From Anaerolineae bacterium (GTDB lineage Bacteria; Chloroflexota; Anaerolineae; Promineifilales; Promineifilaceae): a stretch of 24,000 nucleotides of DNA. The stretch is from positions 348,138 to 372,137 of the forward strand of contig JAHDWK010000005.1 of NCBI GenBank assembly GCA_023382655.1, in the 5' to 3' direction. Within the stretch, counting starts at the first letter, position 1, and each line of letters begins with the position of its first letter. Position numbers and translations under genes: made by a program. Of the stretch, positions 8,524 through 23,993 are shown in pieces. Below the pieces are notes generated by a model, which had not been told where the DNA came from, made no database searches, and saw only the letters and a program-made list of their open reading frames with translations.

Positions 8524-9978
8524 ATGGCACATTTGACCAAAACCGCTTATCTGGCCTACACGCAATGCCGCAAAGCATTCTGGATGGCTGCATACCGGCC
8601 CCATCTGGCTGCGCCGCCAGACCCCGCCACCCAGCGCCGCCTGCGCGCCGGGCAAGAGGTAGATGTGCGAGCCAGAGGGCAGTTCCCCGACGGCCGTACC
8701 ATCCCCTATCGCCCGCACCCGGAAGAGATGGCGTCGCTGACGGCACAGGCCATTGCTGAAGGCGCTACCACCTTGTTCCAGGCCACTTTCCACACCGCCG
8801 ATTTGCTGGTTAAGGTGGACATTCTCACCCGCACCGCAGACGGCTGGCATTTGATAGAAGTGAAATCCAGCACCCGTTATAAGCCGGAGGAGCACTTGCC
8901 CGATGTGGCGTTTCAGTGGTACGTGCTGCAACAGGCCGGGCTGCCCCTGGCCCAGGCCAGCCTGATGCACCTGAATGGCGACTGTCGCCATCCGGATTTC
9001 AGCAACCTGTATGCCCTGACTGACATCACCGCCGAGGTGCAGGTCTATCTGCCTCAGGTAGCGGCCGATGTTATCGTCATGCGCGAAACGATGGGCCAAA
9101 CCGAGACGCCGGTTGTGGGTATTGGCCGTCACTGTCGCCAACCTTATGCCTGCGCCTATTACGCCCACTGCTGGCAGGGTGTGGCTGGCGCGACCATCTA
9201 CGATGTTCCTTATCTCAAGCGGCCAACGGAGCAGCAGTTGGACACGGACGGCATCCGCTATGTGGCCGATATTCCGCCTGATTTTGCCCTGGGTGACAAA
9301 CGGGCTGCCGCCTTTGTGACGCAACTGCGGCAGCAGCAAACGGCCGTTGACGCCGACGCCATTCGCCGTGAGCTGGCTGCCCTGACCTACCCCCTGTACT
9401 TCTTCGACTTTGAGACGATTGATTACGCCATCCCCACCTTTACCGGCTGTAAACCGTATCAGCAAGCCCCTTTTCAATATAGCTGCCACGTGCTGCACGC
9501 GGACGGCACGTTGACGCACCATGTGTATTTGCACACAACGCCGGATGATCCGCGACGGCCGTTAATCCACTCCCTGCTCGAACACATCGGCGAAACGGGC
9601 AGTATCATCGTCTACCATGCCCCGTTTGAAAAAGGGCGGCTGAGAGAACTGGCCGATGCCTTTCCCGAACATGCGACCCGTTTATTAGACATGGTTGACC
9701 GCTTGTGGGACCAACTGGACATTTTCAAAAAACATTATCGGGATTATCGGTTTGGCGGCTCTAATTCGCTGAAATCTGTCCTGCCGGTGGTAGCGCCGGC
9801 GTTGAGCTACCAATCGTTAGCCGTGCAAAACGGGCAGCAGGCGCAGGTGGTATGGGAGCAGATGGTCGGGGAGGGGGACACGGCCGTGAAAGAGCAACTG
9901 GCCGCACAACTGCGTGCCTACTGCCATCTGGACACGCTGGCCATGGTGGAAATTCATCGCACCCTGGTTAATTTGTAG
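8524..9978 (+). CDS. DUF2779-type protein: N-terminal Cas4/RecB-like PD-(D/E)xK nuclease with a Cys cluster plus a C-terminal RNase H/DEDD-like domain
   Basis: The 484-aa product starts with LTKTAYLAYTQCRKAFW. DILTRTADGWHLIEVKSST provides D...E-V-K nuclease motifs. CRQPYACAYYAHCW is Cas4-like in its Cys spacing, together with the N-terminal Cys. LYFFDFETIDYAIP and PFQYSCH follow, and I associate them with DUF2779. Confidence 0.65.
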   Translation: MAHLTKTAYLAYTQCRKAFWMAAYRPHLAAPPDPATQRRLRAGQEVDVRARGQFPDGRTIPYRPHPEEMASLTAQAIAEGATTLFQATFHTADLLVKVDILTRTADGWHLIEVKSSTRYKPEEHLPDVAFQWYVLQQAGLPLAQASLMHLNGDCRHPDFSNLYALTDITAEVQVYLPQVAADVIVMRETMGQTETPVVGIGRHCRQPYACAYYAHCWQGVAGATIYDVPYLKRPTEQQLDTDGIRYVADIPPDFALGDKRAAAFVTQLRQQQTAVDADAIRRELAALTYPLYFFDFETIDYAIPTFTGCKPYQQAPFQYSCHVLHADGTLTHHVYLHTTPDDPRRPLIHSLLEHIGETGSIIVYHAPFEKGRLRELADAFPEHATRLLDMVDRLWDQLDIFKKHYRDYRFGGSNSLKSVLPVVAPALSYQSLAVQNGQQAQVVWEQMVGEGDTAVKEQLAAQLRAYCHLDTLAMVEIHRTLVNL

Positions 9979-10017
9979 CCACCTGGCACAAGTGAGAGGC
10001 AAGGAGAAGGTGAAAAA

Positions 10018-12684
10018 ATGGCAGAAATTCAATTGCAGGTCAACGGCCGTACTCACACCATAAACGCCCATCCTGACACACCGCTACTCTACATCTTACG
10101 CCAGGACTTGGGGCTGAAAAGCCCCAAATATGGCTGCGGCGCGGAGCAGTGTGGCGCATGTAAAGTCCTGGTGGATGGCCAGGCTGTGCCCTCTTGCCAG
10201 TTGCCTGTACACCGCGTACAGGGTTTGCCCATCATCACGTTGGAAGGGTTAGGTACGGCCGAAAAGCCACATCCCCTCCAGGAAGCGTTTATGGCCGAGC
10301 AGGCCATCCAGTGCGGCTATTGTGCCAGCGGCATGATCATCGCCGCCCAGGGGTTGCTCAATCGGGTGCGCTACCCCAGCGACGACGAGATTCGGGGGGC
10401 GCTGGCCGATAACCTTTGCCGCTGCGGCGTCTATGACCGGGTGCGCCGGGCCATCAAGTTGCGTATTGGCCGCCCGGAGCCAGCGCCCATCTACGAAGTG
10501 CATCAGACAGAAACACCCGCGGAGACGGGGACGCCGCCCCCCTTACCGCGCAGCCTGCAACAGACGCCCGACCTGGATCGCTGGCTTCGTATCAATGCGG
10601 ACGAGACCATCACCATTTTCACCGGCAAGGTGGATTATGGTCAGGGGCTAAAAACGGCCGTGGCTCAAATTGTGGCCGAAGAACTGGATGTGTCGCTGGC
10701 ACGCATTCATGTGGTTATGGCCGATACGGCCCAGACGCCTGATGAGGGCATGACCACCGGCAGCATGTCCCTGGAAACAAGCGGTTTAGCCTTGCGCTGG
10801 GTGGCCGCCGCCGCCCGGCATCACCTCCTGTCGGTGGCGTATGAGGTCTTGGAAGCGCCACGTGAACGGCTCGTGGTCAACGATGGCCTGATTACCGACC
10901 CGGTTTCCGGGCGCAGCGTCACCTATGGGGAGTTGTTTGGCGGGCGACCATTCGGATTCCAGGTCACGGGGAATATCCTGCCCAAAGCACCAGAAACGTA
11001 TAATGTTATTGGGCAGCCAAGCGAACGCCTCGACCTGCTGCCCAAAGTGACCGGCGCGGCCACCTTCATCCACGATTTAGAGCTGCCGGGCATGGTTCAC
11101 GGCCGTGTCCTCCGCCCACCTCATGCTCATGCACGATTACTGTCAGTGGATGCAGCCACCGTAGCTGGGATGCCGGGTGTGTTACAGGTGGTACGGGACG
11201 GCCGTTTTCTGGCCGTTATTGCCGAACGGGAAGAGCAGGCCATCAACGCCCTGACCGCTTTGGCCGACAGTGCGGTTTGGGAAGGGTCGGCCCAATTGCC
11301 ACCCGCCGATCAGCTATACCGCGACCTCTTTGCCCAGCCAGACCAGCCGCTGCTCATCGTGGCGGGCACGGCCGTGGACGACCCCATTCCCCCGACCCCG
11401 ATTCCGCTTGAGGCGGCGCAAACGCTGCGGGCCACCTACCATCGCCCCTACCAGATGCACGCCTCCCTCGGCCCGTCGGTGGCCGTAGCCCATTTTGACG
11501 ACGGTAAGTTGACCATCTGGACGCAGGCGCAGGGCGTCTTTCCGCCCCGCGCCGCCATTGCCCACGTCCTGGGCATGAAAGAAGCGGACATTCACGTCAT
11601 ATACCGGGAAGGGGCGGGCGTTTATGGGCACAATGGCGCGGATGACGCGGCCCTGGATGCCGCCTTGCTGGCGCGGGTGCTGCCTGGCCGCCCCGTCTCG
11701 CTGAAATGGATGCGCGCCGACGAACATGGCTGGGAGCCATATGCTCCGGCGATGAAGATTGAACTACAGGCCAGCCTGGATAGTACGGGGGCGATCATAG
11801 ATTGGCAGCAAGATGTCTGGAGTCCTTCCCACCTGGGGCGGTCGCGTTCTGGGCCTGGTATTTCCGGTTTACTGGCCGCGGCTTATCTGGCTGACCCGCT
11901 GTGGCCGCCACCGTCAGCGCCAGCACGAGGTACACACAGCGGCAGCTATCGCAATGCCGACCCGCTGTATGCCTTTGCCCGGCGGCGGATTGTGGCCCAT
12001 CATTTGCCGACCAGCCCGCTGCGCGTTTCGGCCATGCGCGGCCTGGGGGCGGTGGCTAACGTTTTTGCCATCGAGTCGTTTATGGATGAGTTGGCCTACG
12101 CTTCCGGGCAAGACCCGGTAGCTTTTCGCCTGCGCCACCTGGCCGACGAGCGGGCCAAAGCGGTGATTGAAGCGGCGGCTATAAAAGCAGGTTGGCAAAC
12201 GGGCAGGCAGCAATTGGGTCACGGCCGTGGCCGGGGCATCGGTTTTGGTCAATACAAAAACCGGCAGGCGTATACGGCCGTGGTGGTTGACCTGCATGTG
12301 GATGACAGTGGGGAAATTCACCTGGAACACGCCGTCATCGCCGCCGATGCCGGGCAAATTGTCAATCCCGATGGGCTGAGTAATCAGTTGGAAGGCGGCT
12401 TTATTCAGGCGGCCAGCCTCACACTCTATGAACAGGTCACCTGGAATGAACAAGGAATTACCAGTTGTGATTGGGATAGCTACCCTATCTTACGCTTTCC
12501 CCAGGCGCCGGTGATTGAAAACGTGTTGTTGAATCGCCCCCACCTGCCGTTTTTAGGCGCGGGCGAGGCATCTCTGGGGCCAACGGCCGCCGCCATTGCC
12601 AACGCCGTCTTTGCCGCCACCGGGCAGCGCTGGCGCGATTTGCCGTTGACGCAGCAAAGTGCCTTTACCCGCACGACCACTTGA
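10018..12684 (+). CDS. Fused [2Fe-2S] small subunit plus molybdopterin-binding large subunit of an aldehyde oxidase/xanthine dehydrogenase-family oxidoreductase (IorA-IorB-like fusion)
   Basis: Residues 1-150 carry both 2Fe-2S motifs: GCGAEQCGACKVLVDG, and QCGYCASGMI with CRCGVYDRV. The remaining roughly 730 aa resemble IorB-type Mo-binding subunits (KVDYGQGLKTAVAQIVAEEL, ADT..TPDEGMTTGS, GAGVYGHNG, GQIVNPDGLSNQLEGG, GAGEASLGP). The ATG is preceded by AAGGAGAAGGTG. Confidence 0.85.
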   Translation: MAEIQLQVNGRTHTINAHPDTPLLYILRQDLGLKSPKYGCGAEQCGACKVLVDGQAVPSCQLPVHRVQGLPIITLEGLGTAEKPHPLQEAFMAEQAIQCGYCASGMIIAAQGLLNRVRYPSDDEIRGALADNLCRCGVYDRVRRAIKLRIGRPEPAPIYEVHQTETPAETGTPPPLPRSLQQTPDLDRWLRINADETITIFTGKVDYGQGLKTAVAQIVAEELDVSLARIHVVMADTAQTPDEGMTTGSMSLETSGLALRWVAAAARHHLLSVAYEVLEAPRERLVVNDGLITDPVSGRSVTYGELFGGRPFGFQVTGNILPKAPETYNVIGQPSERLDLLPKVTGAATFIHDLELPGMVHGRVLRPPHAHARLLSVDAATVAGMPGVLQVVRDGRFLAVIAEREEQAINALTALADSAVWEGSAQLPPADQLYRDLFAQPDQPLLIVAGTAVDDPIPPTPIPLEAAQTLRATYHRPYQMHASLGPSVAVAHFDDGKLTIWTQAQGVFPPRAAIAHVLGMKEADIHVIYREGAGVYGHNGADDAALDAALLARVLPGRPVSLKWMRADEHGWEPYAPAMKIELQASLDSTGAIIDWQQDVWSPSHLGRSRSGPGISGLLAAAYLADPLWPPPSAPARGTHSGSYRNADPLYAFARRRIVAHHLPTSPLRVSAMRGLGAVANVFAIESFMDELAYASGQDPVAFRLRHLADERAKAVIEAAAIKAGWQTGRQQLGHGRGRGIGFGQYKNRQAYTAVVVDLHVDDSGEIHLEHAVIAADAGQIVNPDGLSNQLEGGFIQAASLTLYEQVTWNEQGITSCDWDSYPILRFPQAPVIENVLLNRPHLPFLGAGEASLGPTAAAIANAVFAATGQRWRDLPLTQQSAFTRTTT

Positions 12685-12762
12685 GTGGCGACCACTTGAG
12701 TCCCTCAAATTTGTATTCAGATGCTGGCGACTGTCCACACCGGGTGCCAGATTCAGGCACAC

Positions 12763-12794
12763 AAAAAAGAGCCATCTCGCGAAAGAGATGGCTC
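12763..12794 (-). terminator. Intrinsic terminator of the micropeptide gene
   Basis: On the - strand the sequence reads GAGCCATCTC-TTTCGC-GAGATGGCTC-TTTTTT. This is a 10-bp perfect stem, a 6-nt loop and a T6 tract. It begins 27 nt after the micropeptide stop codon. It is unidirectional, with no T-tract on the + strand side. Confidence 0.8.
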
Positions 12795-12821
12795 GTTGGA
12801 TCATGCGTGTGTTCGGTTGAA

Positions 12822-12884
12822 TTAGCAGCCGCAGCCACAACCAGAACCGCCACAGCAATCAGATTTTTGTTGCCGGACTAACAT
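12822..12884 (-). CDS. 20-aa Cys/Gly-rich micropeptide MLVRQQKSDCCGGSGCGCGC (7 Cys); function unknown
   Basis: This ORF is below the track's length cut-off. The ATG (12884-12882) is preceded by GGAGGT at 8-nt spacing (aatGGAGGTaaacctgATG). The stop is TAA. A near-consensus promoter lies upstream and a strong terminator lies downstream, forming a complete monocistronic unit of about 200 bp. Confidence 0.6.
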   Translation of the reverse strand: MLVRQQKSDCCGGSGCGCGC

Positions 12885-12922
12885 CAGGTTTACCTCCATT
12901 TAGAATTTTTTGCTCACTACAC

Positions 12923-12971
12923 ATAGACGATCATCTATGCGTTATTATATAGAAGATCGTCTATATGTCAA
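12923..12971 (-). promoter_or_regulatory. Near-consensus sigma70 promoter of the micropeptide gene with two 16-bp palindromic operators
   Basis: All elements read on the - strand. TTGACA lies at 12971-12966, followed by a 16-nt spacer and TATAAT at 12949-12944. Operator A (12949-12964, + strand ATAGAAGATCGTCTAT) fills the spacer. Operator B (12923-12938, + strand ATAGACGATCATCTAT) covers the expected transcription start. Both fit ATAGA-n-GATC-n-TCTAT. Their centres are 26 bp apart. Confidence 0.6.
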
Positions 12972-13061
12972 CCCCTACCCAATGACAATTCTCCGCGCGC
13001 TGGTCACCTGTGGATTCAGCGCCCATGAGGGCATGACCTGTCAAGGAAATATGCAACTCTT

Positions 13062-13098
13062 TTGAAATTTGTACAAGTCGCAGTATACTGAGTATAAT
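13062..13098 (+). promoter_or_regulatory. Candidate padR-operon promoter(s) with an embedded 10-bp palindrome
   Basis: One candidate is TTGAAA (13062-13067), N16, TATACT (13084-13089). An overlapping alternative is TGTACA (13070-13075), N17, TATAAT (13093-13098). The perfect palindrome CAGTATACTG (13081-13090) overlaps the first -10. The padR ATG at 13131 has AAGGAG upstream. Confidence 0.4.
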
Positions 13099-13130
13099 AC
13101 CGGGTATATTCTTGCAAGGAGATTAATCTT

Positions 13131-13682
13131 ATGACTGTTCGCCACGCCATGCTGGCCTTGTTAAGCAATCACCCGAAGTTTGGTTTGCAGTTGCAACAGG
13201 AGTTTGAGTCGGGGACAGGCAAGGTATGGCCTCTCAACGTGGGCCAGGTCTACACGACTCTCCAACGCCTTGAACGAGATGGACTCATCGAATGTGAGAG
13301 TGGGGAAGTTAGGGGTTCACAGAAAGATTACAGAATTACCCCGGCCGGTCGCACCGAACTTACCAACTGGCTCCAGACACCGCCCGATTTAGAACCTCCG
13401 CCAAGGGATGAGCTGGTCATCAAAGTGTTGGCGGCCTTGCGGGTGCCAGGCATCAATGTGCCAGAGCTTTTGCAGATATACCGTCGCCACCTGGTTGAGG
13501 TAATGCAGGGCTACACCTATCTAAAAGCAGAGGGAGTAGATGACGATGTGGCCCTGGCCCTCATTGTGGATGCCCAACTATTCCAGCTTGAAGGGATTAT
13601 ACGGTGGCTCGATTCGGCCGATATTCGCTTGAGGCAATTCGCACCCACCGGCTCAGACATAGGTAATATTGTGGAGGTTTGA
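13131..13682 (+). CDS. PadR family transcriptional regulator (long form with C-terminal dimerisation domain)
   Basis: The 183-aa product has a winged-HTH signature: AMLALLSNHPKFGLQLQQEFE....WPLNVGQVYTTLQRLERDGLIE, then KDYRITPAGRTEL. A helical C-terminal domain follows. Confidence 0.88.
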   Translation: MTVRHAMLALLSNHPKFGLQLQQEFESGTGKVWPLNVGQVYTTLQRLERDGLIECESGEVRGSQKDYRITPAGRTELTNWLQTPPDLEPPPRDELVIKVLAALRVPGINVPELLQIYRRHLVEVMQGYTYLKAEGVDDDVALALIVDAQLFQLEGIIRWLDSADIRLRQFAPTGSDIGNIVEV

Positions 13683-13685
13683 CAA

Positions 13686-14405
13686 ATGACTATAGCACTC
13701 GAACTACGCCAGGTATCAAAAGTCTATGGCGAAGGCCCAACGGCCGTTCGTGCCTTGTGGCAGATTGACTTGTCAGTTAAACGAGGCCAATTGGTAGCCA
13801 TTATGGGGCCGAGCGGATCGGGCAAAAGTACGCTGTTGACGATTGCCGGCAGCCTGGAGGGCCCAACCAGTGGTGAGGTGCTGGTTGGTGGCGCGGCACT
13901 GTCGAGTCTGTCGCGCGATGACCGGGCACGGCTGCGCTGTCGATCAATCGGTTATGTATTTCAGGACTTCAACTTGTTGGCAGGGCTTACGGCGGTAGAG
14001 AATGTGGGGCTTCCTTTGGAGCTGGGCGGTGCGGCCGTCAAAATCGCCCGGTCAGCCGGAATGCAGGCCCTTGAGGCGCTAGGGATCGCGGATCGGGCTG
14101 CCCATTATCCTGATGAACTATCGGGTGGTGAACGACAACGGGTCGCCATTGCTCGAGCCATCGTTGGCGAGCGCTATTTACTGCTCGCTGATGAACCAAC
14201 CGGAGCTCTGGATTCAGTGAATGGAGAGGCGGTGATGCGCCTGCTGCGTACTGCCTGTCAACGTGGGGTAGCTGGTGTTGTTGTAACCCATGACGCTCAA
14301 TTGGCCTCTTGGGCCGATCGGGTCGTGTTTTTGCGCGATGGGAGGGTGGTTGACCAGACTTCATCGCCGAGATTGGAGGTTGCTTACACGGAGGCGATGC
14401 CATGA
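13686..14405 (+). CDS. ABC transporter ATP-binding protein (MacB/LolD/BceA-like subfamily)
   Basis: Walker A is GPSGSGKSTLL, the signature is LSGGERQRVAIARA, Walker B is LLLADEPTGALD, and the H-loop is VVVTHD. The gene starts 3 nt after the padR stop. Confidence 0.9.
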   Translation: MTIALELRQVSKVYGEGPTAVRALWQIDLSVKRGQLVAIMGPSGSGKSTLLTIAGSLEGPTSGEVLVGGAALSSLSRDDRARLRCRSIGYVFQDFNLLAGLTAVENVGLPLELGGAAVKIARSAGMQALEALGIADRAAHYPDELSGGERQRVAIARAIVGERYLLLADEPTGALDSVNGEAVMRLLRTACQRGVAGVVVTHDAQLASWADRVVFLRDGRVVDQTSSPRLEVAYTEAMP

Positions 14406-16888
14406 GCCAATCAAGCCTTATTTCAATACGGAAAGGGGCAGGCGATGGCGGTCTTGCGGCTCGTCGGGCTGTGATCCGTTGGGCGTGGCGGCTGTTTCGC
14501 CGTGAGTGGCGGCAGCAACTGTTGGTATTGGGTCTGCTTACCCTGGCTGTGGCTACGGCCGTTTTCACTGCTGCATCGGCTTACAACCTGGCTCCTGTGC
14601 CGGGTAATGCTGAGTTTGGTATGGTAAATCATTACCTCCAGTTCAATGCCATTACGCCAGAAGGATTGGCGCAGGATATTGCCTTTGCCGAAACACAGTA
14701 TGGTACCATTGAGGTCATCGGCCGTTGGTTTGTGGCAGTACCTGGCTCAGTAGAGAGCATCGAGTTTAGGGCGCAAAACCCGCAAGGGGCTTATAGTGGG
14801 CCGATGTTGGCGCTGCTAGACGGCCGTTACCCCACCCACGCTGATGAAGTTGCCGTAACGGATGATGTGGCGGCAACCTTCGCTCTGGGCATTGGCGACC
14901 CCTTTGCCCTTGATGGTGTGGCGCGGACGGTGGTGGGCATAGTCGAAAATCCCAGCGACTTAAATGCTGAATTTGCCCTGGTGTCCCCCTCGTCCGATGA
15001 ACTACCGCAAGAGGTGATAATCCTGGTTGAGGCCACTGACGAGCAGGTGATCCCCTTTCGCGCACCCAGTGGAGCGACAACAACGAGGGCACGGCGGCCA
15101 GGCAACGAAGATGTAGTCGCCGCTGTAGGCGTCTTTGGCTCCACAGCCGTGACAATGCTGCTCATCGCGCTCGTCGCTACGACCAGTTTTATGGTGATAG
15201 CCCAGCGCCGCCTGCGCCAATTGGGTATGCTGGCGGCTGTCGGCGGCACCGAAAAGCACCTTCGTCTGGTGACGGTTGCCAGTGGGGTGATGATTGGTCT
15301 CCTGGCAGGGGTCATTGGTGTGGTGATCGGCCTGGCAGCCTGGTTGGCGGCGACGCCATTCATGGAACCGGTTGTTGGCTTTCGCATTAACCCGCTCAAT
15401 GTTCCCTGGTGGCTGATCGCTACCAATATCCTGCTGGCAATTATCACTGCCAGCGCAGCCGCCTGGTGGCCCGCACGTAGAATGGCGCGAATCCCTATTA
15501 TTCTGGCCCTTTCCGGCCGTCCACCCAAGCCGAAGCCAGCCCGACGTTCGGCAGCACTGGCCGGATTTTTTATCTTGGGCGGTGTCGTTTGCCTTGTCCT
15601 GGCCAACCAGACGAGCCAACTGCTTATTGTCATCGGTACTGTGGCGACTATCCTGGGGGTGCTGCTTATTGGCCCGTTTGTGCTCCAGGCTGTCGCCGCC
15701 GCAGCTGGATCGTTTCCCATTGCGGTGCGGTTAGCACTGCGCGATTTGGCCCGTTATCAGGATCGTGCCGGGGCAGCATTGGCGGCGATTAGCCTGGCTT
15801 TGGGTATTGCCGCAGCCATCGTCATCACTTCGGCGGCCGCAGAATTTACGGCCGACAAAGGCAACCTGGCCGAGAATCAGCTTTTAATTCGGACGGGCAC
15901 AGCGGTGCAGTCAGAGGGGGACAGTATTGGGGGACCATTTGTGCCAGACAGGACCCCCGCTGAACTGGACAACCTTGAAGCACAGATTACCCGATTGACG
16001 ACCGTATTGAACAATGCAGCGGTGATCCCTTTAGACGTAGCTTTCGACCCGGCGATGGAACCAGATCCCGCGTTTGGGGGGCGACCCACTGTTACCCTGG
16101 GCGAATACACCGATTTGGGTGGCATTAGCGGCTATCGAGACCTGACGCTGCTTTATGTGGCTACACCAGAGCTGCTCCATTATTATGGAATTGATGTGGA
16201 GACGATTGATCCGGCTGCAGAAGTTCTCACAGTCGAAACAGGTGAAATCAGGTTTATCGGCGTGTCCCGCTTGCCAGGCACGCGGCCGGAATTGGTAGCC
16301 AATTTTGAGCAAATATCTCCCAGTTATTCGTCGCTGCCTGGTTCATTTATCACACCGGATGCTCTGCGCCAGCGTGGTTGGGAAACGGCGCCGGTGGGCT
16401 GGCTGATTGAGGCCAATGGACCGCTCACCGCTGAGCAAATCGCTGCCGCCCGCCAGATTGCCGCAGATGCTGGTTTGACAATTGAATCACGCGACCACCA
16501 GGAAGGTTTGCTGGCCCTGCGTTCACGGGCAACGGCCGTTGGTTTATTCGTCGCCCTGGCTATTCTGGCCATGACCGTCGGCCTCATCCGCAATGAAGCA
16601 GCGGGTGATCTCAGAACACTGACGGCTGCAGGAGCTACGAGCAGGATTCGCCGCACTCTGACAGCGGCTACTGCTGGCACACTTGCCCTGCTTGGCGCTG
16701 TGCTAGGTACGGCGGGGGCATATGTCGCGCTCATCGCCGGGTACATGAGCGATATTTCAGCCCTGCGTCATGTGCCGGTTCTCAACTTACTGCTCATCGT
16801 GGTCGGTATTCCGTTGATCGCGGTGATGGCTGGCTGGATCATGGCTGGACGCGAACCGGTGATGCTCAGCCGACAACCTATCGAGTGA
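14402..16888 (+). CDS. ABC transporter permease with two FtsX-type modules and two large extracytoplasmic domains (BceB-like 10-TM architecture)
   Basis: The 828-aa product is coupled to the ATPase gene by an ATGA start/stop overlap. After the first TM helix comes a soluble domain of about 180 aa, then an FtsX-like 3-TM block (…AQRRLRQLGMLAAVGGTEKHLR…). Further TM helices are followed by a second soluble domain of about 220 aa. A second FtsX-like block closes the protein (…IRNEAAGDLRTLTAAGATSRIRR…). Confidence 0.85.
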   Translation: MSQSSLISIRKGAGDGGLAARRAVIRWAWRLFRREWRQQLLVLGLLTLAVATAVFTAASAYNLAPVPGNAEFGMVNHYLQFNAITPEGLAQDIAFAETQYGTIEVIGRWFVAVPGSVESIEFRAQNPQGAYSGPMLALLDGRYPTHADEVAVTDDVAATFALGIGDPFALDGVARTVVGIVENPSDLNAEFALVSPSSDELPQEVIILVEATDEQVIPFRAPSGATTTRARRPGNEDVVAAVGVFGSTAVTMLLIALVATTSFMVIAQRRLRQLGMLAAVGGTEKHLRLVTVASGVMIGLLAGVIGVVIGLAAWLAATPFMEPVVGFRINPLNVPWWLIATNILLAIITASAAAWWPARRMARIPIILALSGRPPKPKPARRSAALAGFFILGGVVCLVLANQTSQLLIVIGTVATILGVLLIGPFVLQAVAAAAGSFPIAVRLALRDLARYQDRAGAALAAISLALGIAAAIVITSAAAEFTADKGNLAENQLLIRTGTAVQSEGDSIGGPFVPDRTPAELDNLEAQITRLTTVLNNAAVIPLDVAFDPAMEPDPAFGGRPTVTLGEYTDLGGISGYRDLTLLYVATPELLHYYGIDVETIDPAAEVLTVETGEIRFIGVSRLPGTRPELVANFEQISPSYSSLPGSFITPDALRQRGWETAPVGWLIEANGPLTAEQIAAARQIAADAGLTIESRDHQEGLLALRSRATAVGLFVALAILAMTVGLIRNEAAGDLRTLTAAGATSRIRRTLTAATAGTLALLGAVLGTAGAYVALIAGYMSDISALRHVPVLNLLLIVVGIPLIAVMAGWIMAGREPVMLSRQPIE

Positions 16889-17212: not shown

Positions 17213-20173
17213 CTACATCATTTGTCGCTTGGCCAAATCGGCAAACACGCCTTCTGTTTTGATTAACTCGTCATAGGCGCCTTGCTGCACGACACGGCCG
17301 TCTTGCAGCACATAGATGCGGTCGGCGTTCATAATGGTGCTTAGCCGGTGGGCAATCACAATGCGGGTGGCCTGCAAATTATCCAGGCTCTCGCTGACAA
17401 TGGCCTGGGTGCGGTTGTCCAATGCGCTGGTAGCTTCGTCAAAAAAGAGGATGCGCGGCTGGTGTACCAGGGCACGAGCAATAAGCAGACGTTGCCGTTG
17501 TCCGCCAGACAGTGTGCCGCCACCTTCACTGAGTACCGTATGTAACCCCATGGGCATGGCTCTGATATCATCTTCCAGCCCGGCCATACGTACCGCCCGG
17601 CGGGCATCTTCAATGGTGAGCAGTGACGAGCCAACGATATTGGTGAAAATATCACCGGCCATCAATTTCCCGTTTTGTAATACCACGCCGATCTGGCGAC
17701 GTACCTCACGAATGTCTAAACCGGCCAGGTCACGGCCGTTGTAATAAACGGCGCCTGCCTCTGGCGTCTCAAAACCTAATAACAGGCGGAACAAGGTTGA
17801 TTTACCTGACCCTGAAGGCCCCACCAGGGCGACAAACTCACCGGGTTTCACCTGCACGGAAACATCCTGCAGAATGGCCGGCCCATCTGCCCGGTATCGG
17901 AAAGAAACGTGGCTAACTTCTAATTCTCCGGTCAATTCACCGGGGTCAGCTTTCATCTCATCCACTTCTGGTAAGGTTTCCAAAATCGGTTTGGCTCGTT
18001 CATAGGTGGGCACGATATTGAGGATAGTCACGACGGCCTGACCCAAAACCAGCACCGCCGCCAGGAATTGGACAAAAGCGGCATTAAACGCCAGAAATTG
18101 TCCGGTGGACATCGCTTCCTGACTAGAATAAGTAACCATTCCAAAGATGACAATGCTGGTGATCAGAGGAAAGGCAGCGTTAAACACTGTCAAGCGATTA
18201 GCCGTTTCACGCGCTTCATACTCTGTCTGCTTGTAACGGCTAAATTTACCGGCCCACGAAGCAAATGCATGACCTTCTACACCGGCAGCCCGCAATTTGG
18301 TTATCCCAGAGATCGTTTGCAGAACAATACCGGCGATCTGCCCCTGGAGATCAACCAATGAACGTTGATACCGAACCTGTACCCGTCCGGCGATGATGGT
18401 AACGGCCAGAGCTATGCTAACCAGAAATACAGCCACCAGTGCCAGACGGCCGTCATACCAAAAAAGCAACAACACCGAGGTGATGGAAAATACGCCTGTC
18501 AGCAACGATTGGACGACCACAGAAGACAATGTGCGTTCAATCATACTGATACCCATTACCCGCTGCCCCAGATCGCCGGCGGTATAGTCCCGGAAAAAGG
18601 AGACCGGCAACCCCAGCAGGCGATCCCACATAGCGGCCTGAATGGAATGCCCCATTTGCCCCTGCAAGCGTAACAGAGCTACGTTTTGGGTGATCTGCAC
18701 GCATAATGAGGCCAGGGCCACAAAAACCAGCAGAACACTCACCTGGAAAAGCTGCGCCCGGCTTTCATTGGGGATGATCTGGTCAATAATAAAGCCTGTT
18801 GCGATGGGAATGAACAATCCCAAAAGACTAATAACCAGGCCACATAAAAAGATGGTGCGCATGTCGTAGCCAATGTGACGCAGCCCAAACTTTACCAGAT
18901 CAAAGAGGGATAAGGCTTTTACAGGAAATGGCCGGTAAAAGGTAAAAGCGAAGGGATGTAACGTGCTGGCCACCTCTTCATCAACGACACGTTTTTCACC
19001 TGAAGACATGATCATCTCATATCTCTGACGTGGCCGTGGCAGTAAAGCTGCTGCCTGTTTTGGCTCCTCATCGCCGGCCAGAAAAGCCAACATAGGGCCA
19101 TGATTGAGCCGCCACCATTCTCCTTTGAGAGCGACGCGGCGTATTTGCACGCGGGAAGCACGGGTGATCTCGCTTAATGGATCAGCATTTTCTTTTTGAC
19201 GGCCGCCGGGTGGTTCTTTGAATTCGATGCCGAGTTGTGCGCCGAGCAGTTGGCAGGTAGCAAGCAAGGGATGGGTGTTACGGCCGTCTATCGCCGTCCG
19301 CTCCGCGGGGTTAATAAAACGGGCTGCCAGGTGACTGAGTGCCTGACCAACCATCTCCTGGTGAGAGGTGACTTTATTATGAAGACGTTCTTTGTCCTCC
19401 TCTCTCTTTTGATCCAGCCATTGTTCCAGAAAGCAGAGAATAAGCTGGTGAAACGGCGCCAGACCAAAACCTGTGGCGCCATTTTGGAGGAAGGCGGTGG
19501 TTGTGGTCACCTCAAGCTGGCTAGGCTCCATTGCTTTGAGCCAGGTACGGCTAGAGATAGGCCAGTAGAGTGTGCCATTCAGAACCGGCAACGCCACATT
19601 GCCCATAAAGGTAGATTTTCCCCTGGCGTGTCTGACCCACAAAATTCCTCGCCTGGCAGAGGCAGTGTCAGCAGGTTGCAACTGATTGCTCTGATTCAAT
19701 TCCAGGCGAATGCTTGTTTTGGGCGGTAAGACTGTTGCCAGGGCGGATGACAAATTACTAATCCAGCCGTCCACCAACGCCGCTACATGTGCGCCAAACT
19801 CCTCGTCACGCGCCAGATTCTCTAGTTGGCTTGCCTTCACTTGCAACAGGCTGGCGTTATTACTGCCTACAGCCAGCAGACCAACCCGGTCAACTTCAGG
19901 AACTAATGCCATGCCAAATAATGCCTGTCCGGCCGGTACACGAAACAGATGCTCCCGCGAACCGGCGACCTTGCCATTTTGCAGCGGCACGGCAAACAAG
20001 TCTACCCAACCGGCATAGACTACCCAGGCTATGGTGGGGTCGTTGAGCAATTCGGGGGCATTATTCCCCAATTTTTCCAGAAGGGCTGCCTTATAGCGCA
20101 AATGGAGCAGAAACAACTCTTCAACTTTATATTCTTCTGCCGGTTCTTGAGGAAGTTTTGTTGGTTCGTTCAT
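17213..20173 (-). CDS. NHLM/NHLP-type bacteriocin (RiPP) export ABC transporter, permease/ATPase subunit without peptidase domain, with an N-terminal extension of about 440 aa
   Basis: An ABC exporter TMD is followed by an NBD with Walker A GPSGSGKST, signature LSGGQRQRLLIARAL and Walker B ILFFDEATSALD. The long N-terminal region (e.g. LFRVPAGQALFGM) occupies the position where related exporters carry a cyclic-nucleotide-binding-like domain. I prefer the ATG at 20173 (MNEPTKLP...), which overlaps the upstream stop as ATGA. The tracked start at 20266 would overlap the upstream gene by 97 nt. Confidence 0.85.
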   Translation of the reverse strand: MNEPTKLPQEPAEEYKVEELFLLHLRYKAALLEKLGNNAPELLNDPTIAWVVYAGWVDLFAVPLQNGKVAGSREHLFRVPAGQALFGMALVPEVDRVGLLAVGSNNASLLQVKASQLENLARDEEFGAHVAALVDGWISNLSSALATVLPPKTSIRLELNQSNQLQPADTASARRGILWVRHARGKSTFMGNVALPVLNGTLYWPISSRTWLKAMEPSQLEVTTTTAFLQNGATGFGLAPFHQLILCFLEQWLDQKREEDKERLHNKVTSHQEMVGQALSHLAARFINPAERTAIDGRNTHPLLATCQLLGAQLGIEFKEPPGGRQKENADPLSEITRASRVQIRRVALKGEWWRLNHGPMLAFLAGDEEPKQAAALLPRPRQRYEMIMSSGEKRVVDEEVASTLHPFAFTFYRPFPVKALSLFDLVKFGLRHIGYDMRTIFLCGLVISLLGLFIPIATGFIIDQIIPNESRAQLFQVSVLLVFVALASLCVQITQNVALLRLQGQMGHSIQAAMWDRLLGLPVSFFRDYTAGDLGQRVMGISMIERTLSSVVVQSLLTGVFSITSVLLLFWYDGRLALVAVFLVSIALAVTIIAGRVQVRYQRSLVDLQGQIAGIVLQTISGITKLRAAGVEGHAFASWAGKFSRYKQTEYEARETANRLTVFNAAFPLITSIVIFGMVTYSSQEAMSTGQFLAFNAAFVQFLAAVLVLGQAVVTILNIVPTYERAKPILETLPEVDEMKADPGELTGELEVSHVSFRYRADGPAILQDVSVQVKPGEFVALVGPSGSGKSTLFRLLLGFETPEAGAVYYNGRDLAGLDIREVRRQIGVVLQNGKLMAGDIFTNIVGSSLLTIEDARRAVRMAGLEDDIRAMPMGLHTVLSEGGGTLSGGQRQRLLIARALVHQPRILFFDEATSALDNRTQAIVSESLDNLQATRIVIAHRLSTIMNADRIYVLQDGRVVQQGAYDELIKTEGVFADLAKRQMM

Positions 20174-22449
20174 GCGGTTATTGACTCCCATATTGAATCG
20201 AGTAGTCGCTCTGATTTGGGTGTATCCGCTTGGATCAGGTGGGCGTAATGCCCACCTTTGCGCCACAATTGTTCGTGTGTGCCACGCTCTACGACCAGTC
20301 CCTTGTCTAGCACAATGATTTCATCACAATCACGGATGGTACTCAAACGATGGGCGATTATAAGACAGGTACAGCCCCGACGGCGCAAGTTGTTGTCCAC
20401 AATTTTTTCGGTAACGGGATCCAGGGCGCTAGTGGCTTCATCCAATACCAGGATAGAGGGATTGGTGACCAGGGCGCGGGCAATTTCCAGACGCTGCCGC
20501 TGACCGCCGCTAAAGTTACGGCCGCCTTCACTTACCAGGCGATCATAGCCGTCGGGCTGGTTAGCAATATCATCATGGATGTGAGCATCCTTGGCGGCCT
20601 GGATGACGCTTTCTTCAGGAATGAACGAATCCCACATGGTCAAGTTCTCTTTAACTGACCCGGCAAACAAGAATATATCCTGGTCTACGATGGAGAGAGA
20701 GTTATTTAATATGATCCGCGGGATATGGGCGCGGGTTTGTCCATCAAACAGAATTTGACCTTCCCAGGGTTGATACAGGCCCGCTACCAGTCTGGCAACG
20801 GTAGATTTGCCGCTGCCGCTGCCCCCTACCAGAGCGACGCGGGAGCCTGGTTCCAGGTAGAGGTTAAAATCCTCAATAAGGGGTTTGGCTAATTTGCTGT
20901 AACCAAACGTGATGTGGCGCAATTCGATGGTTCCAGATAGTTTGGTCGGGCTGTTTTCCAGGTGCGCAGTGGAGTCTACCACCTGTACCTGGGGATCAGG
21001 TTGGTAATCAAGAACGTCATCTAATTTGTTGAGAGAGGCTTCCATTTCCTGTAGCTGGGCGCCCAGGCCCACCATCTCGTTGACAGGGGTCAGAAAGCTG
21101 ATCATCAGGGTTTGAAAAGCTACCAAAACACCGAGAGAAAGCTGGCCGTTTATGATTTGCAGGCCGCCAATGGTCAGGATAACAACACTGGTTAAAGTTG
21201 TCAGGAAGAGGGGTACGGCCGTGACAATTTGTGTTGTCTGGCCTAGTTCTTGGGTGGCGTTAAATACTTTGGCCTGATAACCTGCCCAGCGAGCAAAAAA
21301 GTCAGGCTCCCCGCCGGTAGCTTTGATTGTTTCAATGTTTTGCAGCCCACTAAAAGCTGTGGCCAACATCTTGCTGTTTTCCATTACCAGCCGTTGGTTA
21401 GCATCTGTGCGCCGACGAGAAGCAGCCCGCAATACCACAAAGTTAAGTGCGGCCATGCCAATACCCACCAGGGTTAATAAAACGCTATAACGAAACATGA
21501 CCGCAGCGTAGAAAGCAATTAATACGAGATTGAGCAAGGAAGTGGCCAGTTGACCGGAAAGTAATTGGGCTACCCGATCATTGATGCCCACCCGGGAACT
21601 GATGTCGCCGGCGCTGCGCTGGGTGAAAAACTCAATGGGCAGGCGCAAAATGTGCCAGAGCAGCCGACTGGAATTGAGTAATGAAAGTCGGGATTCCAGC
21701 CGCAGCAGATAATGTTGTTGCACGGCCGTGAGTATTCCGCGTAGTACGGCCGTGATTCCCATACCAATCAACAATGGCCCCACCCACGATTCCATTCCCT
21801 GTACCAGATAGTAATCTACAAAAAACGCGGAAAATGCCGGAATCAAAATACCTGGAATCAATAACAACAGGCTCACCAGAACGATATACAGTAGGGCTGT
21901 TTCTGACCCCCGCAAACGTTTGTACAAAGCAGTGAACAGGCTGCCCTGTTTGCTCTCTTTTTTGAATTGTTCGCTCTTTTCAAAAGTAAGCACCACGCCT
22001 GTAAAAGCCTGATCAAACTCTTCCGTGGAAACCACACGCGGGCCTGTGGCTGGATCGTTCAGAAAAACCTTGTCTTTGCTAAAACCTTCCACTACCAGAA
22101 AATGATTAAAATTCCAGTGGACGATCATGGGTAGAGGCAAGTCACGCAAAGGGCCTGGGCCATAGCGGAATCCTCTGGCCGTCAGGCCATAGGTACGGGC
22201 GGCGCGCAAGACATTGCTGGCCTTGCTGCCATCACGCGAGACGCCACATTGCACCCGCAACTCTTCCAGCGGCACATAACAACCATGGAAAGCTAACACA
22301 ATCGCCAGAGCGGCCGCGCCACATTCCACCGCCTCCATCTGTAAGATAGTTGGTGTTTTCACGCGCTGCTTGCGGGGCCAACGGCGAGATTTTCGCACGC
22401 GAGATTCTCGCGCACTCTCCTTGTTTTCCACTTGCATTTCTTGGGTCAT
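20170..22449 (-). CDS. NHLM/NHLP-type bacteriocin export ABC transporter with N-terminal C39 leader peptidase domain (peptidase/permease/ATPase)
   Basis: The C39 domain shows PTILQMEAVECGAAALAIVLAFHG (catalytic Cys) and IVHWNFNHFLVVEG (His). A six-helix TMD follows. The NBD has GGSGSGKST, FSGGQRQRLEIARAL and ILVLDEATSALD. The ATG at 22449 has AGGTG upstream. The tracked start at 22455 is a GTG. Confidence 0.9.
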   Translation of the reverse strand: MTQEMQVENKESARESRVRKSRRWPRKQRVKTPTILQMEAVECGAAALAIVLAFHGCYVPLEELRVQCGVSRDGSKASNVLRAARTYGLTARGFRYGPGPLRDLPLPMIVHWNFNHFLVVEGFSKDKVFLNDPATGPRVVSTEEFDQAFTGVVLTFEKSEQFKKESKQGSLFTALYKRLRGSETALLYIVLVSLLLLIPGILIPAFSAFFVDYYLVQGMESWVGPLLIGMGITAVLRGILTAVQQHYLLRLESRLSLLNSSRLLWHILRLPIEFFTQRSAGDISSRVGINDRVAQLLSGQLATSLLNLVLIAFYAAVMFRYSVLLTLVGIGMAALNFVVLRAASRRRTDANQRLVMENSKMLATAFSGLQNIETIKATGGEPDFFARWAGYQAKVFNATQELGQTTQIVTAVPLFLTTLTSVVILTIGGLQIINGQLSLGVLVAFQTLMISFLTPVNEMVGLGAQLQEMEASLNKLDDVLDYQPDPQVQVVDSTAHLENSPTKLSGTIELRHITFGYSKLAKPLIEDFNLYLEPGSRVALVGGSGSGKSTVARLVAGLYQPWEGQILFDGQTRAHIPRIILNNSLSIVDQDIFLFAGSVKENLTMWDSFIPEESVIQAAKDAHIHDDIANQPDGYDRLVSEGGRNFSGGQRQRLEIARALVTNPSILVLDEATSALDPVTEKIVDNNLRRRGCTCLIIAHRLSTIRDCDEIIVLDKGLVVERGTHEQLWRKGGHYAHLIQADTPKSERLLDSIWESITA

Positions 22450-22489
22450 AGACACACCTGATGGTTAGAAGCTAAAATTTGTAAAAAAG

Positions 22490-23314
22490 TTACCTACCGG
22501 AAAAGAGCAATTCAATAGGACGTTGCCAACCAATGACGATGTTTGCCTGCCCCAAAGAGCCACTGGTAAGTGAAAAATCCGGTCCCGAAGCCGATGTCCA
22601 GGCCAGTCCCGTAGGTGTTGTGGCATCTTCTAATAGGGCAATGCGCACCTTCACAGGTGCATCACTGTTCGCAATCATTGCCGCCAATTCTTCATTGCCT
22701 ATGTTGGCGACAATCCCTGACCAGGAAGAGGGGAAACTGTCAATAGAAACAATTTGCCCCAAAAGGAAACCATACTCTTCTGGTAACGCGGTTTCTGGCG
22801 CCAGTTTCACCGCTAGACCTGGCGATAAGCGCCGGGCATCCTGCCGGGAGAGATAAGCGACAGCTTCCAGGTAAACCTGACCATCAACAGGCTCCAGGCT
22901 GACAATGGGTGCGCCCGGTTCAATCAAATACCCCTCATTTGTTTTCACCTCAACGACACGGCCGTTGTATGGAGAAAGAACGGGCTGTACCGTATCCTGG
23001 CCGATAGATTTGATATGGGCAATAACCTGACCCGCTTCTACTACGTTTCCCGATGAGACGGTCAGATCGGAAACCTGGCCGCCATATAATGAGATGACAT
23101 TCTGAATGCCACCCGGTGGCAGAAAGATGACGGGACCGGCCACTTCCACCGGCATACGGCTGAATATGCTCCAGAGTACGGCCGTCAGTAAAAGCCCCAT
23201 TAACCCTGCCAGAGCGAGCCAACTTTTAGAGCCGGTTACATGCATCAGCAAATCGAGTTGTTCAGGGGATGATAATCTGTCTAGAGCCACTTTTCGGAAA
23301 ATTTGTGAGGTCAT
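22490..23314 (-). CDS. HlyD-family membrane fusion / secretion protein of the NHLM export system (unusually short, coiled-coil hairpin essentially absent)
   Basis: The 274-aa product begins IFRKVALDRLSSPEQLD and carries a TM helix (WLALAGLMGLLLTAVLWSIF). The lipoyl-like halves are GGQVSDLTVSSGNVVEAGQVIAHIKS and SPYNGRVVEVKTNEGYLIEPGAPIVSLEP. Only about 10 residues separate them. The gene lies immediately upstream of the two ABC genes. Confidence 0.78.
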   Translation of the reverse strand: MTSQIFRKVALDRLSSPEQLDLLMHVTGSKSWLALAGLMGLLLTAVLWSIFSRMPVEVAGPVIFLPPGGIQNVISLYGGQVSDLTVSSGNVVEAGQVIAHIKSIGQDTVQPVLSPYNGRVVEVKTNEGYLIEPGAPIVSLEPVDGQVYLEAVAYLSRQDARRLSPGLAVKLAPETALPEEYGFLLGQIVSIDSFPSSWSGIVANIGNEELAAMIANSDAPVKVRIALLEDATTPTGLAWTSASGPDFSLTSGSLGQANIVIGWQRPIELLFSGR

Positions 23315-23318
23315 ATCT

Positions 23319-23993
23319 TTATCCTACTCCTTGCATTTCCAGGTTCTGTAATGCCTGGCACAATAGATCAGCTGCCCCTTCTGCCGCCAATTCCTCTAGT
23401 GTGAATCGTGTGATGGCCAGCAGCATAAATGCCTGTCCTGGAACATCACGGTGTGCTTGCCGGGCAATGGTATGAAAACGTTCTATATTTCTGGCGGCGG
23501 CTACGACCTGTTTTTGTATCTCGATAAAGTTGTCACTCTGCAATACCGTCTTATCAAGATAATTCTGCAAGCGTCCCCCCTCTCGATAATATGGGAACGA
23601 TTCAAGCCCCATAAAGCGTAAGAACCAGTCAGCGTTGAATGTGCCCAGCGCCGCGACAATGCCCGCATAATCAGCCAGTAATTCGTCGAATATGTCACGG
23701 CGCATGAGGCCAAAAACACGCTTGGTGAAGTAGTGAGTACATTCATGTTCCAGCCGAATAGTCAGTGAAAGTTGCCGCCAGGCAGTTTCCGTTAACCCCA
23801 TGTCGTGCGCCGCTACACCGCTATAAGGTCCATCGAGCAAAATCATAAACCGGTCTTGATAGAAATGTTTTTGAGGGATTAACCGTTTGAACTCTGCTTG
23901 CCAGCCTGCTTCCGCCCTGTTTTGCGGATTTTCCAGTTCCCATTGTGTGCGGTAAGAGCGAATTCTGTCCCAATTGATATAACCAGATACCAT
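23319..23993 (-). CDS. Hypothetical protein with an HExxH metallopeptidase-like motif, first visible gene of the NHLM export operon (the N-terminus may extend beyond the window)
   Basis: The ORF is at least 224 aa. The motif is RLEHECTHYFTKRVFGLMRRDIFDELLADY: HExxH followed about 20 residues later by D-E, a gluzincin-like spacing. Its stop lies 4 nt before the HlyD start. The two codons upstream of the ATG at 23993 are still open at the window edge. I recognise no family. Confidence 0.55.
   Translation of the reverse strand: MVSGYINWDRIRSYRTQWELENPQNRAEAGWQAEFKRLIPQKHFYQDRFMILLDGPYSGVAAHDMGLTETAWRQLSLTIRLEHECTHYFTKRVFGLMRRDIFDELLADYAGIVAALGTFNADWFLRFMGLESFPYYREGGRLQNYLDKTVLQSDNFIEIQKQVVAAARNIERFHTIARQAHRDVPGQAFMLLAITRFTLEELAAEGAADLLCQALQNLEMQGVG

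Follow-up and report, generated by a model that had tools for sequence, protein, structure and literature searches.

In the SmtB-SmtA system of cyanobacteria, a repressor of the ArsR/SmtB family bound to inverted repeats in the promoter controls a metallothionein gene, which is induced by the ion bound by its product. SmtA itself has about 56 amino acids, adopts a defined Zn4Cys9His2 fold, and responds to zinc and cadmium. Arsenite, As(III), is bound by three thiolates. In ArsD, the As(III) site is made up of Cys12, Cys13, and Cys18, with the spacing CC-x4-C (PMC12415280), and a 10-residue peptide of the sensor AfArsR, with the spacing CC-x5-C, has been shown to form a native-like, defined AsS3 site on its own (PMC11212059). 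Phytochelatins, (gamma-Glu-Cys)n-Gly, are short thiol-rich peptides that are both induced by As(III) and able to chelate it (PMC9917255). Few bacterial stress systems are as well catalogued as arsenic detoxification, but the gene lists for it include only proteins of a length that gene callers can detect. Here we describe a small transcription unit in a 24,000-nucleotide stretch of contig JAHDWK010000005.1 from an Anaerolineae bacterium (the whole stretch is referred to below as the window). We are inclined, on balance, to read this unit as a stand-alone member of an ArsR regulon that encodes an arsenite-inducible, As(III)-binding thiol peptide. Its likeness to SmtB-SmtA lies in a presumed repressor of the same family acting over a gene whose sole product is cysteine-rich and probably metal-sequestering, but the peptide has only 20 residues with five cysteines, its promoter carries the boxes of arsenic operons, and the repressor gene is not adjacent.

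The unit is complete and lies on the minus strand at window positions 12763-12971. A first-pass annotation, made from the sequence of the window, had listed a promoter, two palindromic operators, a GGAGGT motif, a 63-nt open reading frame (ORF), and a terminator, and all of these were found on that strand. The -35 hexamer TTGACA (12971-12966), which is kept in all five variants of the unit that we compared, is separated by a 16-nt spacer from the -10 hexamer TATAAT (12949-12944); this TTGACA-N16-TATAAT promoter scores 12/12 and is the sole perfect match in a 1-kb scan. Two 16-bp near-palindromes overlie the promoter. Operator 1, ATAGACGATCTTCTAT (12964-12949), fills the spacer between the -35 and -10 hexamers and overlaps the first base of the latter, while operator 2, ATAGATGATCGTCTAT (12938-12923), covers the predicted transcription start. 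Each is one mismatch away from ATAGACGATCGTCTAT, with about 0.01 such matches expected by chance in the window, and the distance between their centres is 26 bp. Translation would start from a Shine-Dalgarno (SD) sequence, GGAGGT (12897-12892), that is invariant across the variants and stands 7 nt before the ATG, not 8 nt as first counted. The ORF (12884-12822, 63 nt including the stop) runs from the ATG at 12884 to the TAA at 12824-12822 and encodes MLVRQQKSDCCGGSGCGCGC. Five of the 20 residues of this peptide are cysteine (25%, where the first-pass annotation had given 35 percent), and the tail CC-x4-C-x-C-x-C carries all five thiols, with nine residues preceding this core. An in-frame ATG further upstream, at 12899, may give an alternative 25-residue product (MEVNL-MLVR...), although it has no SD of its own; across codons 12885-12899 (ATG/TTG GAG GTA AAC/AAT CTG/CTA), the variants change only the first codon, which stays start-compatible, and two synonymous third positions. 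The stop is followed by a short 3' untranslated region (UTR; 12821-12795), which is identical at 26 of 27 positions in locus L003 and diverged in L027 (labels of this form, such as L003, L021, or L158, denote the related or matched loci compared here). An intrinsic terminator with a 10-bp stem, a 6-nt loop, and T6 then starts 27 nt past the stop (12794-12763; stem 12794-12769). The next gene beyond it is convergent and ends at 12684, and the peptide unit is therefore monocistronic, with no gene downstream.

The two operators tie the unit to arsenic resistance genes. A search of 596 Gb of sequence, with each of 185,579 species represented by a single genome, for the box pair ATAGANNATNNTCTAT-N6-14-ATAGANNATNNTCTAT, that is, ATAGA-N6-TCTAT occurring twice, returned 33 loci, where the chance expectation is at most about 2 even at 30% GC throughout. 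At 24 of the 33, an ArsR-family gene or an ars operon lies immediately downstream of the pair. In 21 Firmicutes loci (Clostridium, Enterococcus, Tissierella, and others), it lies between a TTGACA -35 hexamer and the start of arsR or arsD, and the genes that follow are arsD, arsA, acr3, arsC, or arsM, for example in the order arsR-arsD-arsA-acr3-arsC. It also precedes arsR-arsM in two metagenome-assembled genomes (MAGs) of Anaerolineaceae (L021 and L036) and an ArsR-like gene in one Saccharibacteria locus. Scoring with NCBIfam confirmed ArsR/SmtB, ArsD, ArsA, Acr3, ArsC, and ArsM at the box-pair loci. The peptide unit itself accounts for three further matches (in L027, L031, and L015, the last being the same contig as L003), and the remainder consist of one pair at a contig end and five without ars context.

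The layout of the window promoter is also close to that of arsR promoters from the same phylum. It reads TTGACAT-ATAGACGATCTTCTAT-ATAATAACGC-ATAGATGATCGTCTAT, and the arsR promoter of L021 reads TTGACAT-ATAGACAATCGTCTAT-TAGAATAACGC-ATAGATAATCATCTAT, so that even the inter-box spacers, ATAATAACGC and TAGAATAACGC, are nearly equal. ArsR protein homology, not the DNA pattern, led to two more arsR-arsM promoters, which read TTGACAA-ATAGATGATTGTCTAT-N10-ATAGAGGATTATCAAT (L162-171) and TTGACAA-ATAGATAAGCATCTAT-N9-ATAGACCGTTATCTAT (L187). The boxes are 26 bp apart in L036 and L162, 25 bp in L187, and 27 bp in L021. The operator of the unit is thus the same as that found upstream of arsR and ars operons, in the layout of four Chloroflexi arsR-arsM promoters, and it covers the core promoter, with box 1 in the 16-nt spacer and box 2 on the predicted +1. 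It is established that ArsR represses its own gene by binding an inverted repeat in the promoter and that arsenite lifts this repression, as documented, for example, by electrophoretic mobility shift assay (PMC4562236). Given this, and the position of the pair before arsR and ars genes, the best reading of the pair is as this ArsR clade's operator. The five box pairs without ars context (L011 3520-3561, L009/L025, L028, L029, and L032) include one that precedes a ribonucleotide-reductase-like gene of a Patescibacteria MAG, with the others on Flavobacteriaceae, cyanobacterial, and Bacteroidia contigs; they may be either chance matches in AT-rich DNA or sites of other regulators.

The way in which the ORF is conserved indicates that it is coding. 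We compared five variants of the unit, namely those of the window, the related MAG L003, L031, L158-161 (four samples), and the more distant Chloroflexota MAG L027, and every one of them retains the SD, begins with the ATG, and reaches a TAA stop after 20 codons. The variant peptide of L031 is MSIRQQKSDCCGGSGCGCGC; that of L158-161 begins MSFRQQKSD... and comes with the codon changes TCT>TCC and TGT>TGC, while L027 encodes MTIQQHNADCCGGSGCGCGC with the codon changes GAT>GAC, TGC>TGT, TCT>TCA, and TGT>TGC. Over the 12 codons of the tail, DCCGGSGCGCGC, five or six changes are synonymous and one is a replacement (C20S), whereas only 22% of random single-base changes in the tail would be synonymous (P ~0.003 for the observed excess). 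Across codons 2-8, the amino acid is altered at six of the seven positions. The 5' UTR upstream of the SD is variable, and in L027 both UTRs have diverged while the SD, ATG, tail, and stop stay. The terminator stems have changed in a compensatory manner (GAGCCATCTC/GAGATGGCTC in the window, GAGCCATCCC/GGGATGGCTC in L031, and GGCCACCTC/GAGGTGGCC in L027), with covariation seen in L031, L027, and L158. From the synonymous bias in the tail, the kept frame and length, and the covarying terminator stems, we therefore conclude that the unit is a protein-coding micro-gene. The comparison of synonymous with non-synonymous changes that the first-pass annotation had suggested was ambiguous with L003 alone and was resolved as coding with the five variants, and its description of a real, stand-alone, and tightly regulated gene is supported by the anatomy of the unit, by this coding-type conservation, and by the operators.

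A second family of micro-ORFs with a similar core was found next to arsN2. A metagenome scan with the back-translated tail gave, among the matches listed, mostly (GC)n-type simple sequence and eukaryotic Cys/Gly repeats and no further Anaerolineae-type unit, and two soil contigs (L077 and L109) encode MNTIYMGGCCGGGGCGCGCGD after arsN2. This micro-ORF (L077 1710-1775, minus strand; also in L109 and L176-L184) lies between arsN2 and an Rce1-like gene, is unannotated, and encodes 20-21 residues of the form MNTIYMGGCCG(G/D)(G)GCGCGCGD. An AGGAGG SD precedes its ATG, which shares bases with the arsN2 stop codon (CGATGA). The upstream gene was assigned as arsN2 by NF040501 with 140 bits, against a cut-off of 125. 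Four more arsN2 homologues, with 62-80% ArsN2 identity and one of them in a MAG annotated as Krumholzibacteria, bring the number of lineages to five together with L077/L109, and the micro-ORF is present in all five; the contigs come from soil and sediment and from a lineage other than Anaerolineae. The common synteny consists of a divergent gene of the low-molecular-weight phosphatase type (arsC-like), a MarR regulator, arsN2, the micro-ORF, and an Rce1/CPBP-like membrane protein. Among the micro-ORF variants MNTIYMGGCCGDGGCGCGCGD, MKTIYMGGCCGDGGCGCGCGD, and MNTIYMGGCCGGGCGCGCGD, a 3-nt in-frame deletion sets the last apart, and the other differences are mainly synonymous. The five-cysteine core CC-x3/4-C-x-C-x-C is thus tied to arsenic genes twice and independently, through the ArsR box pair in one family and through translational coupling to arsN2 in the other. 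We tentatively propose a wider reading, in which Cys/Gly micropeptides of 20-21 residues with this core would be a recurrent, previously unrecognised component of arsenic resistance in at least two phyla, acting as ArsD- or phytochelatin-like As(III) carriers. They would come in two formats, as a stand-alone ArsR-boxed gene in Anaerolineae and as an arsN2-coupled ORF in Krumholzibacteria-like bacteria, and would escape annotation because they are below the length limits of gene callers.

For the unit in the window, the features described above suggest the following course of events. Without arsenite, ArsR dimers would sit on both ATAGA-N6-TCTAT boxes, over the spacer and over the transcription start, and shut the consensus promoter. 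Binding of As(III) or Sb(III) would make ArsR leave the DNA, after which a short mRNA, bearing a strong SD and ending at the unit's own terminator, would be produced in quantity. This mRNA would give rise to many copies of the 20-residue peptide, whose five thiols in the CC-x4-C-x-C-x-C tail would hold As(III) as an AsS3 centre. The complex might then serve as a cytosolic As(III) buffer, a gene-encoded analogue of phytochelatins or metallothioneins, or it might hand its As(III) over, in the manner of ArsD, to an ars enzyme such as ArsM or to a pump. We infer ArsR repression, arsenite induction, arsenic binding, and the later fate of the complex from sequence. Among the loci that we retrieved, one ArsM (L030) starts with GGCCSSGCSCGS at its N-terminus. 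The first-pass annotation had named a metallothionein- or phytochelatin-like peptide as one of its options, and we likewise judge a thiolate, metal(loid)-binding peptide to be the best reading of the sequence.

Each of the known thiol ligands differs from the peptide in important respects. Bacterial metallothioneins have about 55 residues, so the peptide is a third of their size, and with no match in Pfam (E up to 1) or NCBIfam (E up to 0.01) it does not fall within the metallothioneins (SmtA/BmtA). ArsD shares the spacing CC-x4-C-G (MCCSTGVCG in ArsD, DCCGGSGCG in the peptide) and is itself encoded under an ars promoter that shares the box. However, ArsD has about 120 residues, a thioredoxin-like fold, and a surface for docking to ArsA, while the lineage of the peptide appears to rely on ArsM and not on ArsA; the ArsD model NF033727 was not matched, and the CC-x4-C spacing alone is shared. 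Phytochelatins are made enzymatically from glutathione, whereas the peptide would be ribosomal, with alpha-peptide bonds and transcriptional control. The AfArsR loop (Cys95-Cys96-Cys102; studied as the 10-mer Ac-NCCHGTRDCA-NH2) provides a precedent for a short, unstructured vicinal-cysteine peptide that folds round As(III) into a trigonal-pyramidal AsS3 site (PMC11212059), but the loop belongs to a sensor protein and is not made as a separate gene product, and its spacing is CC-x5-C. We therefore see the unit as a candidate of a known kind, a metal(loid)-binding cysteine-rich product under ArsR/SmtB control, whose peptide belongs to none of these families. An exact look-up of the peptide in a collection of 15 billion proteins found it absent, and tblastn against plasmids gave no match. 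A blastn search with the whole unit against plasmids gave two weak matches to the operator region in Enterococcus, and a search of PDB sequences with the peptide gave one meaningless match, to Parkin at E = 3.4. The full-text literature, in a coverage that leaves out most subscription-journal papers, contained no description of an ArsR- or ArsN2-linked cysteine-rich small peptide or short ORF.

If our interpretation is correct, an arsenite-inducible 20-residue thiol peptide would be a ribosomal counterpart of phytochelatins and metallothioneins in the ars repertoire and, to our knowledge, the smallest such product. It would suggest how ArsM-based lineages without ArsD and ArsA buffer or deliver As(III), and it would offer a minimal natural As(III) ligand as a starting point for biosensing or bioremediation. 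It would also mean that operator-guided searches can expose micro-genes that are missed by protein databases.

Several observations weigh against an As(III)-binding peptide under ArsR control. No arsR or other ars gene is present within the 24-kb window, and the best 120 homologues of the L021 ArsR include no cluster on the window's contig. The arsenic specificity of the box pair is deduced from the operons that share it, and ArsR/SmtB repressors are known to sense several metals (PMC4562236). The two micro-ORF families could resemble each other by convergence. Moreover, the Anaerolineae variants number only five, four of them close relatives, all five glycine codons are invariant, and our first pairwise comparison, that between the window and L003, contained no synonymous change in the ORF despite 25% divergence at third codon positions in the neighbouring oxidoreductase gene. 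Some nucleotide-level constraint may therefore act on the unit, as a second RNA role beside coding. Taken further, these patterns lead to the alternative that the functional product is a small regulatory RNA of about 175 nt, with the ORF incidental or the transcript dual-function. L003 is 87.5% identical over window positions 9998-12974, but from the SD to the terminator there are just two differences in about 110 positions, one of them the replacement C20S, and the predicted RNA fold is somewhat more stable than that of shuffled sequence (z = -2.35), which would both suit an RNA, as would the invariant glycine codons. With more variants, however, the changes in the tail are nearly all synonymous, the N-terminal codons change residues while length and frame are kept, and the UTRs of L027 diverge where the SD, ATG, tail, and stop do not; the analogous arsN2-coupled ORF tolerates a 3-nt indel but shows no frameshift. 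A scan of positions 12000-13600 against Rfam at permissive E-values matched no family, as the best hits were microRNA models with 17-23 bits against thresholds of 51-81, and these are explained by the palindromes. We consider a regulatory RNA quite unlikely for these reasons.

A gene that is controlled by ArsR but whose peptide does not sequester or chaperone As(III) is a less remote alternative, albeit still an unlikely one. Such a peptide might supply thiols or reducing power to arsenate reductase or ArsM, undergo modification by a partner enzyme (acetylation by ArsN2, for instance, in the second family), modulate ArsR or a transporter, or bind another thiophilic ion such as Sb, Cd, Hg, or Cu. 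The link to ArsR regulation applies here just as it does to an As(III) ligand, regulators of this repressor family respond to several metals (PMC4562236), and the micro-ORF of the second family is translationally coupled to an acetyltransferase and followed by an Rce1/CPBP-like membrane protein, whose family takes part in peptide processing elsewhere. Against such roles, the unit in Anaerolineae lacks a conserved partner gene. What favours As(III) binding is that the spacing CC-x4-C and the thiol count agree with those of known AsS3 sites (PMC12415280, PMC11212059) and that the operons sharing the box are all arsenic-specific sets (arsD, arsA, acr3, arsC, arsM). The least probable of the alternatives is a cysteine-sensing leader ORF, in which ribosome pausing on cysteine codons would regulate downstream genes. 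Cysteine-rich short ORFs are known attenuators, and arsenic stress depletes thiol pools; the polycysteine leaderless short ORFs of mycobacteria are likewise unannotated and functional, but they act in cis on cysteine-metabolism genes by ribosome stalling (bioRxiv 10.1101/834739), whereas the control here would be through an operator pair. The strong terminator at 12794-12763 is followed by the 3' end of a convergent gene, which leaves nothing downstream to regulate, so the unit is not an attenuator of the mycobacterial type. Its cysteine codons alternate with glycine codons and form no run, and the contexts in which it occurs are not cysteine-metabolism loci. Also very improbable is a precursor of a ribosomally synthesized and post-translationally modified peptide (RiPP), of the azole or thioether type, or a secreted peptide of some other sort, with export through the neighbouring NHLM/C39 ABC proteins or the PadR-controlled ABC/FtsX proteins. 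The Gly/Ser/Cys core, the GG pair within the peptide, and the NHLM exporter genes, which share the strand of the unit in the window and immediately precede it in L158-161, would fit this. Against it, there is no cyclodehydratase, radical-SAM enzyme, or other maturase in the window and no leader peptide with a double-glycine site, as only nine residues precede the core, and both the promoter, with its ArsR-type boxes, and the terminator belong to the unit itself. In L003, L031, and L027, moreover, the unit stands beside neither the exporter nor the PadR operon, so the azole-RiPP option of the first-pass annotation lacks a maturase, a leader, and a conserved link to an exporter.

Divergent to the unit is a PadR-ABC-FtsX operon (13131-16888), beyond which NHLP-type exporter genes lie on the minus strand, encoding ABC2 (17213-20266), C39-ABC1 (20170-22455), and HlyD (22490-23314). 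The first-pass annotation had described these correctly as a divergent PadR/ABC efflux operon and an NHLM exporter on the strand of the unit (17213-23314), and had proposed that peptide, repressor, and transporter form one system. In L158-161, however, the PadR-ABC-FtsX operon is absent and the unit directly follows the NHLM ABC2 gene in an otherwise syntenic region, so its presence looks like an insertion/deletion polymorphism, and the co-occurrence with padR/ABC/FtsX that was to be expected breaks down in close relatives that keep the unit. Neither the PadR operon nor the exporter is found beside the unit in L003, L031, or L027. Since the neighbours vary among relatives, a three-part system of peptide, PadR, and transporter is not supported; the operators are of the ars type, and none stands upstream of padR. 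PadR was rejected as the regulator of the unit, as the promoter region of padR in the window has different repeats (GTATA-type) and relatives lack the operon. The window shows no NHLP/Nif11 precursor gene. A DUF7005 gene, cut by the end of the window, precedes the exporter operon (region 17213-23993).

On its other side, the unit is convergent with a gene for a molybdenum oxidoreductase of the xanthine-dehydrogenase family with 2Fe-2S domains (888 aa; 10018-12684, plus strand). The unit adjoins this gene in the window, L003, and L158-161, and a functional link was considered for the conserved block in the window, L003, and L158. It was dropped because L031 and L027 carry the unit beside unrelated genes, an aminotransferase-like gene in L031 and patatin-like and PIN-domain genes on its two sides in L027. 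The peptide unit was also not found within 10 kb of Chloroflexi arsR-arsM operons (L162-175, L185-187), and it behaves as an unlinked member of its putative regulon. In related strains (L158 4001-9664), the gene call is a 1887-aa fusion that adds an N-terminal BTAD/NB-ARC (STAND-type) region to the oxidoreductase; in place of this region, the window has a DUF2779 gene (8524-9978) upstream of the oxidoreductase. A 13-nt direct repeat, ACTCAAGTGGTCG, is present on the minus strand in two copies within 12674-12701 and spans the stop codon of the oxidoreductase.

Some other features of the compared loci are worth recording. Directly downstream of an Anaerolineae-type arsR-arsM in L185 (11379-12156) and L186 (1572-2349), there are three tandem paralogous genes of 64-67 aa (MYITTYSM.EAYI...LNKLGD...) that belong to no Pfam family. 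At the arsN2 loci, a conserved GC-rich hairpin (CGGCTCCGTTCCC...GGGAGCGGAGCCG) follows the micro-ORF. The MarR regulator that heads these loci (L077 2276-2785, on the minus strand; L176 2440-2949; L177 2053-2562; L181 683-1186; L184 2492-3001) has conserved cysteine clusters, DTICCHDISVTQC, and, in four of the five variants, a C-terminal CCxxxCxC (L181 has CCC); this protein may be an arsenic sensor, and the promoter region of its gene contains the palindrome TAGTTGC-N-ACTGACAACTA. The Cys/Gly motif occurs as part of a larger protein as well: FmdB-family zinc-ribbon proteins (TIGR02605; L092 30-1067, minus strand, and L111 2453-2704, plus strand) end in ...GGGCCGGGGCGCG(H), where the same motif forms a C-terminal tail.

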